This document shows, piece by piece, positions 47,526 to 52,891 of a DNA stretch of 64,000 nt. The stretch is from Dictyostelium discoideum (taxonomy: Eukaryota). The stretch is from NCBI GenBank assembly GCA_000004695.1, contig CM000151.3, positions 5,536,001-5,600,000 on the forward strand. The letters are read 5' to 3'. The first letter of the stretch is position 1; the number at the start of each line of letters is the position of its first letter. Both the position numbers and the translations under genes were made by a program. The notes beneath the pieces were generated by a model, which was given only the letters and a program-made list of their open reading frames with translations, was not told where the DNA came from and made no database searches.

Positions 47526-48443
47526 ATGAGCAAAGAAGATAAAATAACTCAACAATGTATTCAAAGATTGGAAGAATTATTAAAATTGGAAGAAAATAGA
47601 TATTGTGCTGATTGCAGTTCAAAGAGTAAGTTTTTTTTTTTTTTTTTTTTTTAATTAAATTTAAATTAAAATAAAATTTAAATCATATCATTTTTTTTTT
47701 TTTTTTTTTTTAAATTTATATAAATCATATTAAAATACACACCCATTTATTTATTATTATTGTTATTATTATTGTTTTTTAATTTTATTATTATTTACTA
47801 ACAAATGAAATTTAATTGGAAATAATAAATTTAAAAAAAAGATCCAAGATGGTGTTCAACCAATTTAGGTATTTTTGTTTGTATAAAATGTTCAGGTATT
47901 CATAGATCATTAGGTGTCCATATCTCAAAGGTTAGAAGTGTTACACTTGATAAATGGAATTTTGAATTATTACAACAAATGGTTGATGGAGGTAACAAAA
48001 AAGTGAATCAAATCTATGAAGAGTTCATGCCAGCTCACTATAGAAAACCAGATCCAAACACTGATACACAGTAAGTATAGAATAGGATTTTATTCATCAA
48101 AAAAAAATTGAATAAACTTTATTAATAATATTGTTATTATTATTGTCTCTTTTTTATTCTAGCACTTTAGAACAATTCATTAGAAGTAAATATGAAAGAA
48201 AAGAATTTATGAGAAGAGATATTAGTTCTCGTACTGGAAATAATAATAATAATAATAATAATAATCATCACCAACAACACCAACAACAACAACCAAGACG
48301 TGAAAACTATGGTGGTAATAGTGGAGGTGGTTTCTCTTCAACAAATAATGTAGAATTACGTTCATACTCACAAAATAATAATAATAGCAATGGCTATAAC
48401 AATAACAATAATAACAATAACTACAACAACAACAATAACAACA

Positions 48444-48476
<33 letters not shown>

Positions 48477-49615
48477 GAGGATATTCAACTACTAACCCAA
48501 GTAATCAATCACATGGATTTGTTAGACCATCAATAGCAAATGGTTTTGCAACAACTGAATTTAATAATCATAACAATAACAATAACAATAGTAATAATAA
48601 TAATAATAATAATAATTTCAATAATAACATAAAACCACCAACACCAGTTCAAACAAAGAGTAATGTATCATTAATTGATGACCAATGGAATAGCGCACCA
48701 CAAGGTAAGAAATCATTAATCGATGATGATTTCAATGGTCCATCTGTTGCACCACAACAACAACCACATAGTACCTTTGATCCATTTGTTGGTTCAAAAG
48801 TAAGCAGCAATGGTGCTAACAATAACAATATCAATATGAACAACAATATGAACAACAATATGAACAACAATATGAATAATAATATGAACAACAATAATAT
48901 GAATAAACAACCATTTAATAATAATGGATTCCCTACACCACCAACTGGTATGAATAGTATGATGGGAGGTAACAATAATAACAATTTCAATATGATGAAT
49001 AATGGTGGTGGTATGATGCCAATGAATAATGGTATGATGAACAATGGTGGCATGATGAATAATGGTGGTGGTGGTATGATGCCAATGAATAATGGCGGTA
49101 TGATGCCAATGAATAATGGTGGTATGATGAACAATGGTGGTATGTTGAATAATGGTGTTATGATGAACAATGGTGGTATGATGCCAATGAATAATGGAGG
49201 TATGATGGGAGGATTTGGTGGTATGATGCCAATGAATAATGGTGGTATGATGGGTGGTGCTAACAATATGGGTGGCATGAATTTAGGAATGAATGCTATG
49301 TCTCCAATGGGTGGTGCTCCAATGAATAACAATATGGGCGCTATGAATTTAGGAATGAATGCTATGTCTCCAATGGGTGGTGCTCCAATGAGGTCACCAG
49401 CAGCTGCTGGAAATAACTCTTTCAATATTACTCCAACTTCTGCTACTCCAACTCCACCACAACCATCTCAATTCTCTTCTTTGGATTCTTTAATGTTTAC
49501 TTCATCCCCATCTCAACCAAAACAATCACAACCATCTCAATCATTTGGTAACAATTTCCCAATCACTGCAAATAATTCAAATAACAACAATAATGTTAAT
49601 AGCTTATTCTTTTAA
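47526..49615 (+). CDS. ArfGAP-domain protein with a long N/G/M-rich low-complexity C-terminus; join(47526..47625,47842..48070,48163..49615)
   Basis: The spliced product reads ...RYCADCSSK|NPRWCSTNLGIFVCIKCSGIHRSLGVHISKVRSVTLDKWNFELLQQMVDGGNKKVNQIYEEF..., the canonical ArfGAP C4 zinc finger. Donors are GTAAGT (47626) and GTAAGT (48071). Acceptors are aaaaag (47841) and ttctag (48162). Phases are 1 and 2. The (GGMMPMNN)n-like repeats are in the tail. Confidence 0.8.
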
Positions 49616-49796
49616 TAAAATATTACAATAATAATAATAAAAATACAAAAAAAAGAAAAAAATGAAAAAAAAGAAAAAAAAAAAAAGAAATGAAATAAAA
49701 AAAAAATATTTATAAAATGAAAATTAAAAAAAATAAATAAAAATATATAGTATTTTCAATTTGTTGTTTTATTTCTTTTATTTAATATTTAAAATT

Positions 49797-51674
49797 TTAA
49801 AATATTTTCAAACGATCAGGGGAACATTGGTCTTCAAAATATTTGGAAATAAAAGTGTAACTATGTCTTGATATTTGATAACAACAATAATGTGGAGGAC
49901 AATCAATATTTTCATAACAAACTGCCATTGGTCTTGGTGGTAAAGTTGAGCCAGTTGTTGTGGTACTTGATGTTGCTCCAATTGTAGATGAATAGATAGT
50001 TGATAATTCAGTGGTATGGCTTACGGTTGTTAGGTCAGTTGTGGTTGTTGGAATAAATGTTGTTGAAGTAGTAGATGGTGATGTTGTTGGCATTGTTGTG
50101 GTTGTTGACATTGTTGAAATTGTTGTTGGTGAAAATGTTGAAATTGTTGTTGGATTGAGTGTTGTTGATGTAGTTGCAGAAGTTGTAGTTGTTGGTAATG
50201 AAGTTATTGTTGAAGTTGTTGGAATTGATGTAGTTGTGGCCTCACTTGTTATAATAGAGGTGGTTGTAGTTGTAGTTATTTCTACACATAGACATCCACC
50301 ACCTTCACAATATGGATATAGACAGTCATCAGTTACTGGACACTCTACAAAATTCGTTGTAGAGTGTTCAGAATTTTCATCACATTGTTTTGGGAAACAT
50401 AAATCAGTAGTGTTACAATTACTTTCATCACATCTACAACCGGCAATATAAGCGTGTTCACAACAAGTTCCTTCTGTACAATAATCAAGTGTACATGCAT
50501 CACCATCACCACAATCTCTATCTGCTACTACACAGGTACCACATAAAGTTCTCTTTTGAGAACAACTTGTTAGATCATCAAAACATTGATTTCTACAAAT
50601 ACCATCACTAAATTAAATAAAAAATAAAAATTAATATTTTTTTATAACAATAATTAAAAAAAAAAAAAAAAAAAAAAAATAATACACACTTCACAAAATC
50701 CACATTCATCAACATAACTACAAAATATTCCCATATTATTAGTTATATTGCAAGAAAGAATTCTCTATGGTCAACATTATCCATATGTTGATAACCGAAA
50801 ATATTAGCAGTATGAGTATGATTAAGATAATCATTTCAAAAAATAAGGTGTTCACCATATGGATTTTCGCTGAAACCAATACCTCCTTTGTCAATCACTA
50901 ATTGATTATCAATGAATGCCCAAATCTCACCAGGTGAATCAATTGTTAAAAAAGCGAATATAGGTAATCTACTAATTGGAATTGGTCCATTAAATCTAAA
51001 TGAAAAATGGGGTTCAAAACAAAATAAACCTTGATCAATATCGTTATCATAATTAAATAATGTTTGGTTATTAAAACCAATATCAGAGTATGAAAATGGA
51101 TATGAACTAATTTCTCCAAAATTACAATCTGGACATTCTATAAAATATTCAAATGGAAAATCAACTCTATAGGATGGACATTGAGAGTCATCAACAACGC
51201 CATATGGAGCATCGGCAAACCATTGACTAACTGAATTTTCTCCATGCACAACAATTACATTTGGATCATTAGTTGATTCAACTTCACTATCACCCTAAAA
51301 TTTAGATAAATAAATAAAAAATTAGTATTTTCTTTCAATTCATTTAAAAAATAGATACATACACAACAAAAACCTGGATTTGAAATTGTATCTGAATAAT
51401 TTTTAAAAATTTCTGGTAATATCTTCGTCTAAACTGGAAAGATCCAATCCAAAATCTAAATTTCTATCTGGTTTAAATTGCCATGTCTTAAATATCATCT
51501 GAGGTATTTCTAATGATAATGATGATAATGATGATAATGAGAAAATCATATTTAATATTTTAAAAGATATTAAATTTAAAAAAAAAAAAAAATAAAAAAA
51601 AAAAAAAACATACCTTGCCCATTGACAAAATATACAAAATTAAGTATTGATAATAATAGTATTATCGTTTTCAT
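49797..51674 (-). CDS. secreted PA14-domain / Cys-rich / Thr-rich mucin-like protein, multi-exon, structure only partly resolved
   Basis: Exon 1 is at 51614..51674: MKTIILLLSILNFVYFVNGQ (signal peptide) + GTATGT. The PA14-like exon lies within 50839..51294 (DSQCPSYRVDFPFEYF...GEIWAFIDNQLVIDKGGIGFSENPYGEH). The last exon 49797..50607 starts at a tttag acceptor at 50608. It encodes a Cys-rich module (DGICRNQCFDDLTSCSQKRTLCGTCVVADRDCGDGDACTLDYCTEGTCCEH...), then a ~120-aa Thr/Ser-rich mucin stretch and a C-terminal Cys knot. A candidate 30-nt mini exon at 50688..50717 (YVDECGFCEV) may link the two. The phase between exon 1 and the PA14 exon is unresolved. An in-frame TGA lies at 50836-50838. Confidence 0.5.
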
Positions 51675-52036
51675 TTTTGAAATCCTTAATTCTCAATGAG
51701 TATTAAATTTTTTGATTCTTTTTTAATTTATTAATTTATTAATTTATTTTTTTATTTTTTTATTTTTTTATTTTTTTATTTTAATTTTTTTATTATTTTT
51801 TATTATTTTTTATTATTTTTTTGTGTGTATAAATAAAAAGTGGGTCATTTTACAATTTTGTTTTTATAAACTTTTAATAGTGTGTTATTATTTAAACTCA
51901 CACCCACTTATTAGTATTTTTTGATTTTTTTTATTTATTTGGACAAAAACTAAATCTATTATTAGAAAAAAAAAAAAGAATGATATATTTATTTTAAATT
52001 AATTAAAAAAACAAATATATATATTTTATTAATTTT

Positions 52037-52891
52037 TTATTGAGTTAAATTTTCACGACATGGGCAACAACCAAAGGGTTTTTCACCTGGTTTACAATAT
52101 TTAATATCCATTGTGCACATAGCTTTAGAACAATCTGGAACTTTGGTTTCTTGAGGTGTGCAAGGACAACAACCAGTTGGAAGTTCACCATTTTTACAAT
52201 ATCTAATGTCCATTGTACACATTACATCAGAACAATCTGGTTTTTTAGTTGGTTGAGGTGTACATGGACAACAACCAGTTGGAAGTTCACCTTCTTTACA
52301 GTATTTCAAAATCTTTGGACATGGAACTCTTGAACAATCTGGTTTTTTAGTTGGTTGAGGTGTACATGGACAACAACCAGTTGGAAGTTCACCTTCTTGG
52401 CAATATTTTAAAATCTTTGGACATGGAACTTTTGAACAATCTGGTTTTTTAGTTGGTTGAGGTGTACATGGACAACAACCAGTTGGAACTTCACCATCTT
52501 TACAATATTTGATTTGAAGAGTACATGCGACACCTGTACATGGTTCACAACGACCACAACAAGAATCGGTCATGTTTAATCTATAATATGGTTTACATAC
52601 TGGTCTAGCACATTTAACAAGGGAGCAATCTGGTTTGGTTGGTGGGAGAGTACATGGACAACAACCGGTTGGAACTTCACCATCTTGACAATATTTGACT
52701 TGAAGAGTACATGCAACATCGGTACAAGGTTCACAACGACCACAACAAGAATCGGTCATGTTTAATCTATAATGAGGTTTACATATTGGTTGGGCACATC
52801 TAACGAGGGAGCAATCAACATTAACTTCACTTTTAACTGATAGTACCAAACAACTTGATAGAATTAATAATAGTATTAGTTTATTTAACAT
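52037..52891 (-). CDS. secreted cysteine-rich tandem-repeat protein (284 aa) with a signal peptide and ~7 copies of a ~33-aa PDCSxVxC...YCxxGE(L/V)PTGCCPCTPQPTKK module
   Basis: The signal peptide is MLNKLILLLILSSCLVLSVKS. The repeats are nearly identical at the DNA level (~99-bp unit, 52130-52560). The ATG is genuine (52889-52891). Confidence 0.7.
   Translation of the reverse strand: MLNKLILLLILSSCLVLSVKSEVNVDCSLVRCAQPICKPHYRLNMTDSCCGRCEPCTDVACTLQVKYCQDGEVPTGCCPCTLPPTKPDCSLVKCARPVCKPYYRLNMTDSCCGRCEPCTGVACTLQIKYCKDGEVPTGCCPCTPQPTKKPDCSKVPCPKILKYCQEGELPTGCCPCTPQPTKKPDCSRVPCPKILKYCKEGELPTGCCPCTPQPTKKPDCSDVMCTMDIRYCKNGELPTGCCPCTPQETKVPDCSKAMCTMDIKYCKPGEKPFGCCPCRENLTQ
52130..52560. repeat. ~99-bp coding tandem repeat array (4-5 near-identical units) inside the Cys-rich secreted protein gene
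   Basis: The block ggacaacaaccagttggaagttcacc...ggttgaggtgtacatggacaacaacc recurs with >90% identity. Confidence 0.7.

Follow-up and report, generated by a model that had tools for sequence, protein, structure and literature searches.

A probable unitary pseudogene of a secreted PA14-like, cysteine-rich protein in Dictyostelium discoideum AX4

Dictyostelium discoideum possesses 21 PA14 proteins and 11 CTDC proteins, three of which carry both domains (Glockner et al. 2016, PMC4931340, Table 4). The members of the psi family (such as PsiA, PsiF, and PsiN) are secreted or exposed proteins combining PA14 with Dicty_CTDC cysteine-rich repeats, an architecture that the gene studied here would share. 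The psi-type dictyostelid PA14/CTDC family is large, lineage-specific and characterized by a quick turnover. The family described here differs from the psi type in that SPGEIWAFIDN replaces the canonical (S/T)DDD.W(V/L)(F/Y)(I/V)N core, and it falls below the cut-offs of Pfam PA14 and TIGR02148. An identical full-length architecture is found in the AX4 protein DDB_G0270342 (UniRef Q55BV9, "PA14 domain-containing protein"), which shares with the studied family the ...GEIW.F.NN.L..D..G... core, the motif C..VD..G.C.G and the C-terminal C..D.CP..YYCYQL..SYTCISK.F...C.P.RL, also has a signal peptide, a PA14-like domain, a CTDC-type Cys-rich region and a Ser/Thr-rich stalk, and is 30% identical over its whole length to P0016, one of the intact orthologues of the studied gene. 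DDB_G0270342 differs in being an intact ORF of 564 aa on a different contig or chromosome, a paralogue with its own orthologues in D. purpureum (DICPUDRAFT_79572), D. firmibasis, D. citrinum, and D. dimigraforme.

Fungal PA14/GLEYA adhesins (Flo5, Epa1/Epa6, Cea1) and the PA14 lectin modules of bacterial RTX adhesins (MpIBP/MpAFP) show 5–9% sequence identity to the studied domain, and no calcium or sugar site was identified in its predicted model (pLDDT 56.6). As a further difference, the studied protein has no GPI or wall anchor, its C-terminus being a Cys-rich knob. A further point of comparison is offered by unitary pseudogenes split into "hypothetical protein" models, with which the locus shares synteny, kept introns, several independent lesions, lesion sets that differ between lineages, and gene models that vary between assemblies.

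The locus lies on the minus strand (51674-49797) of the window, the whole 64,000-nt stretch of D. discoideum AX4 DNA that was analyzed. We consider it very probable that it is a unitary (non-processed, syntenic) pseudogene of D. discoideum, i.e., the product of the ordinary decay of a PA14-like Cys-rich matrix gene: synteny is preserved together with the introns, disabling lesions are present (the indels also in independent data), and constraint appears relaxed.

Intact orthologues and domain affiliation

Undamaged syntenic orthologues with four exons and 533–555 aa occur in D. cf. discoideum (two strains), D. citrinum, and D. dimigraforme. These proteins are computational predictions (the coding sequences of P0001 and P0016 were reconstructed exactly from genomic DNA using GT-AG introns), and their identity to the AX4 proteins, which span fragments only, is 67–77%. 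L001 aligns with positions 57188-41831 of the window, covering both flanks of the gene, and L001–L006 and L011 share the same neighbouring genes. The introns are kept in AX4 at the same three positions as in the orthologues, so the AX4 copy is not processed. In D. cf. discoideum the gene was duplicated and is decaying again.

The orthologues carry a signal peptide and a PA14-like domain, then Cys-rich repeats of the Dicty_CTDC type, followed by a stalk rich in Thr and a small C-terminal knob rich in Cys. The first-pass annotation had proposed a secreted protein with a lectin-like N-terminal domain, a Cys-knot or EGF-like part and a Thr-rich stalk; the N-terminal domain, a Cys-rich region and the stalk hold in the intact orthologues, while the Cys-knot/EGF assignment found no support, as EGF and cystine-knot Pfam models gave no match at E ≤ 1 to 10 in the repaired AX4 translation or the orthologues. 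The Cys-rich part is instead of the Dicty_CTDC type (PF00526, cut-off 27 bits), with P0001 (28.0 bits), P0002 (30.3 bits), and P0016 (27.8 bits) passing, P0003 (24.2 bits) below, and no match to this model in the AX4 copy, in which this repeat has undergone the changes D>G, F>Y, and G>C. On these profile scores, the ancestral gene is a predicted borderline member of Dicty_CTDC, and the AX4 remnant is without the signature.

The Pfam PA14 model (PF07691, gathering score 24 bits), which had been suggested as a check of the domain assignment, gave no match at E ≤ 1 in the repaired AX4 translation or in the annotated protein DDB_G0275607, none even at E ≤ 10 in the intact orthologues P0001–P0003, and none in P0016 or P0025 either. 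Homology to PA14 was found at the superfamily level: among 1.8 billion proteins, the orthologue profile matches the Acytostelium proteins P0010 (E 1.6e-7) and P0012 (E 3.9e-4), both of which pass Pfam PA14 (1.1e-34 and 1.3e-09, respectively) as well as TIGR02148. The hhalign comparison of A3 with A4 (probability 98.6%, E 5.8e-16, 207 columns) spans the whole domain and the CxxxDxCGxCxG motif that follows it. With the fibro-slime model (NCBIfam TIGR02148), three orthologues match in the correct region at 15.8–17.9 bits (E 0.003–0.015), below the 45-bit cut-off; the expected core is DDD.W.(F/Y)(I/V)N..L.iD.GG.H, and that of the orthologues is SPGEIWAFIDNQLVIDKGGIG. A PDB sequence search with a four-sequence profile returned nothing relevant, and one with a 16-sequence profile gave a single weak match, the PA14 insert of KmBglI. 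The fold evidence was counted as supportive only, because the confidence of AlphaFold2 was poor with six sequences (pLDDT 45.5) and moderate with 16 (pLDDT 56.6). Next to nothing was gained from a word-index search for homologues using the domain profile. The gene defines a small and divergent subfamily of PA14-like proteins that is restricted to group-4 Dictyostelia and has DDB_G0270342 as its one intact AX4 member.

The ancestor would have been a four-exon gene encoding a secreted glycoprotein of ~550 aa, in which the signal peptide was followed by a short Ser-rich linker and by a divergent PA14/fibro-slime-like beta-sandwich closing with the motif CSYVDECGFCEG, and in which the Thr-rich stalk was presumably O-glycosylated. 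Analogy to the PA14/CTDC matrix and psi proteins of dictyostelids suggests a role as a component of the extracellular matrix, of adhesion or of signalling.

Exon structure and lesions of the AX4 copy

Exon 1 (51614..51674) is undamaged, aligns with its counterpart in every orthologue and comprises the ATG at 51674, the signal peptide MKTIILLLSILNFVYFVNGQ and one G. Its phase 1 end at 51614 before the donor GTATGT (51613-51608) is as first described. In nucleotide alignments, the ancestral acceptor of intron 1 (TTTTTAG|ATTC, ~51541) has been removed from AX4 by a small deletion, and a silent TTG->TTA change has created an in-frame acceptor TTAG (AG 51511-51510), so that the intron usable by AX4 covers 51510..51613. 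AX4 would splice at this new acceptor. The remnant of exon 2 (EIPQMIFKTWQFKPDRNLDFGLDLSSLDEDI...PEIFKNYSDTISNPGFCC, 51363..51509) is frameshifted by the deletion of AC (51416|51415), leading to a premature TAA at 51405-51403, and is followed by intron 2 (GTATGT...TTTAG, 51295..51362) in a position matching the orthologues.

Exon 3 (51294 to 50690) encodes the body of the PA14-like domain up to CSYVDECGFCE and accumulates several differences from the orthologues. The frame of ...GEIWAFIDNQLVIDKGGIGFSENPYGEHLIF meets a TGA at 50838-50836 and resumes in the same frame as NDYLNHTHTANIFGYQHMDNVDHREFFLAI, as had been noticed at first reading; the coding appearance beyond the TGA is real and not a product of chance, since it aligns residue for residue with the intact orthologues. 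The exon also carries an in-frame CATACT duplication (50820-50809), has lost an invariant Cys (C>Y, 50793) and an invariant Arg (R>H, 50787), and is frameshifted by the deletion of a T (50744|50743), which results in a premature TAA at 50745-50743. The two TAA codons come in addition to the single TGA noted before.

Selenoprotein machinery exists in Dictyostelium, and the persistence of coding-like sequence in frame past the TGA could be read as recoding, with the TGA decoded as selenocysteine or by programmed read-through and the frame changes as programmed frameshifts. We give this reading next to no chance: the codon arose by GGA->TGA, the orthologues have Gly at this site (GGA, GGT or GGG), never Cys or TGA, and other D. 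discoideum strains have GGA. Moreover, neither SECIS nor any other Rfam family was found within 49000-52000 at E ≤ 1, and where the frame changes, the comparison with the orthologues shows simple deletions.

Intron 3 (50608..50689) retains the ancestral phase-0 donor GT at 50689-50688 and the acceptor TTTAG at 50612-50608. An A->G substitution at 50687 has turned the donor GTATGT into GTGTGT, by which a second GT in phase 2 arose at 50687-50686. Exon 4 (49797..50607) has lost its first bases through the deletion of GG (50608|50607) and ends with the stop TAA at 49799-49797. It encodes the Dicty_CTDC-type Cys-rich repeats (50607-50280, with C>S at 50363 and G>C at 50465), the Thr-rich stalk (50279-49930, 47% Thr and 65% Ser+Thr), and the C-terminal Cys-rich knob (49929-49800, with C>F at 49853). 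The new GT, located 2 nt downstream in the donor of intron 3, makes up exactly for the two bases lost with GG; the gene could perhaps still have been under selection after this deletion.

In the nucleotide alignments, the lesions specific to the AX4 lineage amount to three frame-breaking indels and the nonsense codon, the remaining four coding indels being multiples of three, and the intact orthologue P0001 as a tblastn query required frames -2, -1, and -3 on the AX4 locus, three different frames being needed in exon 3. As sister species keep the gene intact, the TGA and the unsolvable phasing are attributable to ordinary gene decay, and a recently inactivated gene was the correct choice among the three options initially offered. 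The exons could not be phased at first reading because the ancestral frame lies beyond any splice pattern, and gene predictors therefore cut the locus into ad hoc fragments. Seen against the gene structures of the orthologues, a supposedly phase-perfect join of exon 1 to an acceptor ttcag, which does end at 51231, is a coincidence within exon 3 (codons E-N-S-V-S-Q) and is ruled out, exons 2 and 3 beginning at ~51509 and 51294. What had been taken for a 30-nt mini exon (YVDECGFCEV, 50716-50687) is the 3′ end of exon 3, severed by the 1-nt deletion, and the phase-2 donor reported as impossible to find is the GT at 50687-50686, employed by the annotated model DDB_G0275605. A very small or unconventional intron, also considered earlier, is unneeded, as frameshifts account for the phasing.

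Within the D. discoideum lineage, the gene would have been released from constraint, and lesions gathered at the intron 1 acceptor, in exon 2 (AC), near the end of exon 3 (T), and at the start of exon 4 (GG). Invariant cysteines were replaced as well, and the change of the Gly codon to TGA, seen in the AX4 reference only, would have come last.

Strain comparison and selection

Over 2078 nt, the independent D. discoideum assembly ACTFIT (L005) departs from AX4 in two places only, a G where AX4 has T (position 50838) and the length of a poly-T, and it likewise carries the AC deletion of exon 2 (51416|51415). Logan WGS contigs from four runs have the T deletion at 50744 in common with AX4, yet read GGA at 50838-50836, and GGA is also present at this site in ACTFIT, ACTFIR, and ACTFIW. 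Because ACTFIT and the Logan contigs carry indels but GGA, the indels are genuine and the TGA belongs to the AX4 reference alone, as the result of a recent mutation or of an erroneous base. The Logan contigs are collinear with the genome, introns included, and are therefore genomic and silent on expression; in these strains, a further deletion of 13 nt restores the frame of exon 2.

A sequence error, another of the options raised earlier, could thus apply to the single base 50838 only. The T at this position ends a T run (TTTTTTGAA vs TTTTTGGAA) and is the sole substitution in 2078 nt relative to the other D. discoideum assembly. An exact ORF look-up for independent contigs found neither the TGA allele of AX4 nor an otherwise AX4-identical GGA allele on record. 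That all the anomalies are errors of the AX4 reference and the true gene is intact is nevertheless highly implausible: the independent assembly GCA_054883475.1 shows exactly the same three frame-breaking indels, acceptor loss, and Cys replacements, the T deletion recurs in Logan contigs of four sequencing runs, and fixing 50838 alone leaves the reading frame broken.

The sister D. discoideum clade of ACTFIR and ACTFIW, in which a neighbouring gene is 3.3–3.7% divergent, has a different and worse set of lesions, including large deletions that affect the 5′ half and exon 4. On the AX4 branch, dN/dS is 0.49 (38.5 N and 20.5 S changes, plus one stop), compared with 0.14 and 0.30 for the intact branches, a moderate rise of marginal significance (Fisher p = 0.04) for which the per-region counts are too small to inform on constraint; pairwise values within the family range from 0.19 to 0.27. 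Three Cys and one Arg that are invariant among six intact family members are replaced in AX4. These substitution patterns suggest a moderately relaxed constraint on the AX4 branch, consistent with a recent inactivation.

Annotated gene models and their reading

In the AX4 annotation, the locus is represented by DDB_G0275607, whose 182 aa run up to the TGA, and by DDB_G0275605, whose 285 aa include no signal peptide, and the fragmentary models vary by assembly (182+285, 231+278, 110+175, and 115+152 aa). DDB_G0275607 retains the signal peptide together with the greater part of the PA14-like domain and avoids the exon 2 lesion via an acceptor CAG ending at 51392. Literature searches for DDB_G0275605, DDB_G0275607, and DDB_G0270342 found nothing.

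Taken at face value, these models would mean that the locus works as annotated, either as two genes or as one with unusual splicing, giving a short secreted PA14-like fragment and a Cys/Thr-rich protein by splicing that avoids the lesions. Both models have GT-AG introns, the signal peptide is retained in the first, the new intron 1 acceptor is in frame, and the donor shift to 50687-50686 compensates the GG deletion exactly. We still regard a working locus as unlikely, since DDB_G0275607 omits ~45 residues that are near-invariant in the orthologues (IPQMxFKTWQFKPDRNxDFGL...) and stops within the domain, DDB_G0275605 takes an internal Met as its start and lacks a signal peptide despite its extracellular-type Cys-rich and Thr-rich sequence, and the models of other assemblies differ and are mutually incompatible. 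The loss of the invariant Cys and Arg, the elevated dN/dS, and the deletion of half of the gene in the sister clade also speak against it.

There is likewise a slim chance that the locus is partly alive, with a truncated, signal-peptide-bearing PA14-like fragment similar to DDB_G0275607 still expressed and working as a novel, small secreted lectin or decoy. If so, the variation between isolates (the TGA/GGA difference, the 13-nt frame-restoring deletion, and the large deletions) would reflect functional polymorphism of a matrix or recognition protein instead of neutral decay, and the GG deletion offset by the 2-nt donor shift would be an instance of compensatory evolution.

Under the pseudogene interpretation, the AX4 copy would have neither function nor expression. 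DDB_G0275607 ("PA14 domain-containing protein") and DDB_G0275605 ("uncharacterized protein") would then be two pieces of one decayed gene, to be merged and flagged as a pseudogene, and the fragment models in newer D. discoideum assemblies would be the same kind of artefact. The main value of the case lies in annotation, and long-standing open questions are untouched by it; it would add to the rapid birth and death of secreted PA14/CTDC matrix and adhesion families in social amoebae, with a gene lost in D. discoideum and kept in its closest relatives. The intact AX4 paralogue DDB_G0270342 offers an alternative object of study. Compared with typical split pseudogenes, the locus has as curiosities the match between the GG deletion and the 2-nt donor offset and the restoration of the exon 2 frame by a second deletion in some strains.

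Intact syntenic orthologues and the lesions of the AX4 copy

The stitched AX4 translation of the studied gene (minus strand, 51674–49797, in a window with a G+C content of ~22%) was used as the query for homologue searches. Proteins of D. discoideum AX4 match the window with 100% identity, which makes it AX4 genomic DNA. Among AX4 proteins only two fragments were found, i.e., DDB_G0275607 (P0006, 182 aa), which splices exon 1 to the internal acceptor 51392 and stops at the TGA, and DDB_G0275605 (P0005, 285 aa), which starts at an internal Met (MGIFCSYVDECGFCEV...). Full-length relatives were recovered in recently sequenced sister taxa: P0001 (ACTFIZ_009725, D. cf. discoideum, 552 aa, 77% identity), P0002 (D. 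citrinum, 533 aa), P0003 (D. dimigraforme, 545 aa), and P0016 (ACTFIY_003498, 555 aa, of another D. cf. discoideum strain), a closer intact orthologue than the other three; P0004 comes from a second, tandem copy of the gene in D. cf. discoideum. The neighbouring genes were the same at the genomic loci and the alignment of the ACTFIZ locus (L001) with the window extended to both flanks of the gene, therefore these are true syntenic orthologues. From genomic DNA, P0001 and P0016 were each reconstructed exactly as a four-exon coding sequence with GT-AG introns.

Nucleotide alignments of AX4 with the intact genes were used to call five lesions: (a) a small deletion near 51541 (minus strand) that removed the ancestral intron-1 acceptor TTTTTAG/ATTC, for which a silent TTG to TTA change created an in-frame replacement (AG at 51511–51510); (b) the loss of one AC from the exon 2 ACAC repeat (51416/51415), yielding a TAA at 51405–51403; (c) a GGA to TGA change at 50838–50836; (d) a T deletion at 50744/50743, which turned ...GCA ATA TAT ACT... 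into ...GCA ATA TAA; and (e) the deletion of GG, the first bases of exon 4, at 50608/50607. Because of the frame-breaking lesions, tblastn with P0001 required three different frames across the AX4 locus. The remaining four coding indels were multiples of three, one of them being a CATACT duplication at 50820–50809.

All sequence features described in the first-pass annotation were confirmed, including exon 1 (ATG at 51674, signal peptide MKTIILLLSILNFVYFVNGQ plus one G, ending at 51614 and followed by GTATGT), the long frame (...GEIWAFIDNQLVIDKGGIGFSENPYGEHLIF) that reaches the TGA and continues beyond it without a change of frame, and the Cys-rich and Thr-rich last exon with its TAA at 49799–49797. 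The ttcag ending at 51231 is also present, and the join proposed from exon 1 to this site proved wrong: the AG sits within exon 3 (codons E-N-S-V-S-Q), while the real exon 2 spans 51509–51363 and exon 3 starts at 51294. Similarly, YVDECGFCEV is found at 50716–50687, and the supposed mini exon is the end of exon 3 (YVDECGFCE), separated from the rest only by the T deletion. The phase-2 donor reported as missing exists (GT at 50687–50686). An A to G change turned the ancestral GAA/GTATGT donor of intron 3 into GAAGTGTGTAT in AX4, and the DDB_G0275605 model uses this second GT, which offsets the GG deletion. The offset is exact, as the A to G change at 50687 (GTATGT to GTGTGT) (within 50682–50692) places the second GT two bases downstream and the GG deletion (within 50602–50612) removes two; it could be a coincidence, or compensation before the gene finally died.

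Independent D. discoideum sequence and decay in the sister clade

Over 2078 nt, the D. discoideum ACTFIT assembly (GCA_054883475.1, L005) differed from AX4 in two places only: base 50838, which is G rather than T, and a poly-T run in intron 3, which has another length. Four sequencing runs supplied D. discoideum WGS contigs from Logan (L007–L010), which are genomic DNA since they are collinear with the genome with introns included; these aligned with window positions 51600–50657, carried GGA at the TGA codon and likewise had the T deletion (50744). Their exon 2 had lost another 13 nt where the AC deletion lies, which restored the ancestral frame, the total loss of 15 nt removing TPEIF. Given the agreement of ACTFIT and the Logan contigs, the AX4 indels are real and shared within D. 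discoideum, and the sequence error considered in the first-pass annotation is ruled out for them; at the single base 50838 it would make no difference to the verdict on the gene. The TGA arose last and matters least; it occurs in the AX4 reference alone (no independent contig on record carries it), and reflects either a very recent mutation or one miscalled base where a T-run ends. Recoding of the TGA was rejected, the orthologous codon being Gly and neither a SECIS nor any other Rfam family being present.

In a neighbouring gene (49615–47750), divergence from AX4 was 0.0% in ACTFIT, 3.3–3.7% in ACTFIR (L004) and ACTFIW (L006), and about 6% in D. cf. discoideum. ACTFIR and ACTFIW, both labelled D. 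discoideum, are together sister to AX4 plus ACTFIT, and by these divergences 'D. discoideum' as labelled here spans deep lineages, possibly cryptic species. The ACTFIR and ACTFIW copies were far more damaged than that of AX4: exons 1 and 2 were missing in both, exon 3 had lost its start in ACTFIW and most of its length in ACTFIR, ~210 nt of exon 4 were absent, the intron-3 donor was destroyed, and further frameshifts had accumulated. At the AX4 sites of the TGA, the T deletion, and the GG deletion they retained the ancestral state. Function was thus lost either once in the D. discoideum ancestor, by a lesion no longer visible, or twice. Either way, the gene is dead in all of D. discoideum sensu lato and still alive in the next outgroups, and the annotations of the individual assemblies split the remnant into 182 + 285, 231 + 278, 110 + 175, and 115 + 152 aa.

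That the truncated, signal-peptide-bearing fragment is still functional has a low probability. The locus is an ordinary unitary pseudogene, derived from a gene of a known kind and wrongly annotated as two hypothetical proteins. A pseudogene at this locus is not surprising; it is useful for curation and illustrates, on a small scale, how matrix gene families turn over in social amoebae.

Selection and residue loss

The family is under purifying selection, with a pairwise dN/dS between intact genes of 0.19–0.27. With changes assigned to branches by parsimony, the AX4 branch had 38.5 non-synonymous changes against 20.5 synonymous ones, plus one stop (dN/dS 0.49), compared with 10.5 and 19.5 for ACTFIY (0.14) and 31 and 27 for ACTFIZ (0.30); the difference between AX4 and the pooled ACTFIY and ACTFIZ branches had a Fisher p of 0.04. 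This moderate rise is as expected for recent inactivation. Residual constraint by region was not discernible, the per-region counts being too small. Three Cys and one Arg, all invariant across six intact members of the family, were lost in AX4 (C>Y at 50793, R>H at 50787, C>S at 50363, C>F at 49853), and AX4 gained an unpaired Cys (G>C at 50465). Its copy had no Dicty_CTDC match; the orthologues just pass.

The ancestral protein and its genomic surroundings

No family member matched the Pfam PA14 HMM, and fibro-slime TIGR02148 hit the right region in three orthologues with only 16–18 bits, below its cut-off of 45. When 1.8 billion representatives were searched with a profile of the N-terminal domain, the PA14/fibro-slime proteins P0010 (E 1.6e-7) and P0012 (E 3.9e-4) of Acytostelium were retrieved; the two strongly pass Pfam PA14 and TIGR02148. 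Profile-profile comparison gave a probability of 98.6% (E 5.8e-16) across 207 columns, including the C-terminal CxYVDxCGxCxG motif common to both sides. The earlier label 'PA14-like' therefore holds as remote homology, not as a Pfam PA14 match. The group is a divergent subfamily with SPGEIW in place of the canonical DDD.W core. The suggested Cys-knot and EGF parts found no support, the Cys-rich part being of the Dicty_CTDC type. The stalk contains 47% Thr.

The subfamily is small and limited to group-4 Dictyostelia, comprising the studied gene and D. purpureum P0009 together with another orthologous group, whose members include D. purpureum P0011, two D. firmibasis genes, and AX4 DDB_G0270342. 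DDB_G0270342 is an intact 564-aa AX4 paralogue with the same architecture and 30% identity over its full length. PA14 and CTDC proteins in Dictyostelia are described as matrix or adhesion proteins that belong to large, lineage-specific families; some of these proteins (PsiA, PsiF, PsiN) turned into developmental signals (PMC4931340). From this analogy, the ancestral gene probably encoded a glycosylated extracellular protein of the matrix or adhesion type that bore a lectin-like head.

In D. cf. discoideum, the tandem second copy lies just upstream (L001:5829–7657 in ACTFIZ, L011:1219–2539 in ACTFIY). In ACTFIZ it is decaying (CAA to TAA in exon 1, 11-nt and 2-nt deletions) and is annotated as a 502-aa protein without signal peptide; in ACTFIY only fragments are left (P0007). 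The upstream neighbour in the window (52037–52891, minus strand) encodes a 284-aa secreted Cys-rich protein with tandem repeats (CS.V.CP.ILKYC.EGELPTGCCPCTPQPTKKPD), in which TRF detected periods of 102 (4.1 copies, 52091–52510) and 186 (52464–52816). Its orthologues range from 284 to 319 aa across strains and species, a spread suggestive of variable repeat copy number. The downstream convergent gene (48131–49615, plus strand) has a long low-complexity tail rich in Asn, Gly, and Met (GGMMPMNNGGMM... repeats), with TRF periods of 18, 24, 36, and 66 at 49006–49391.
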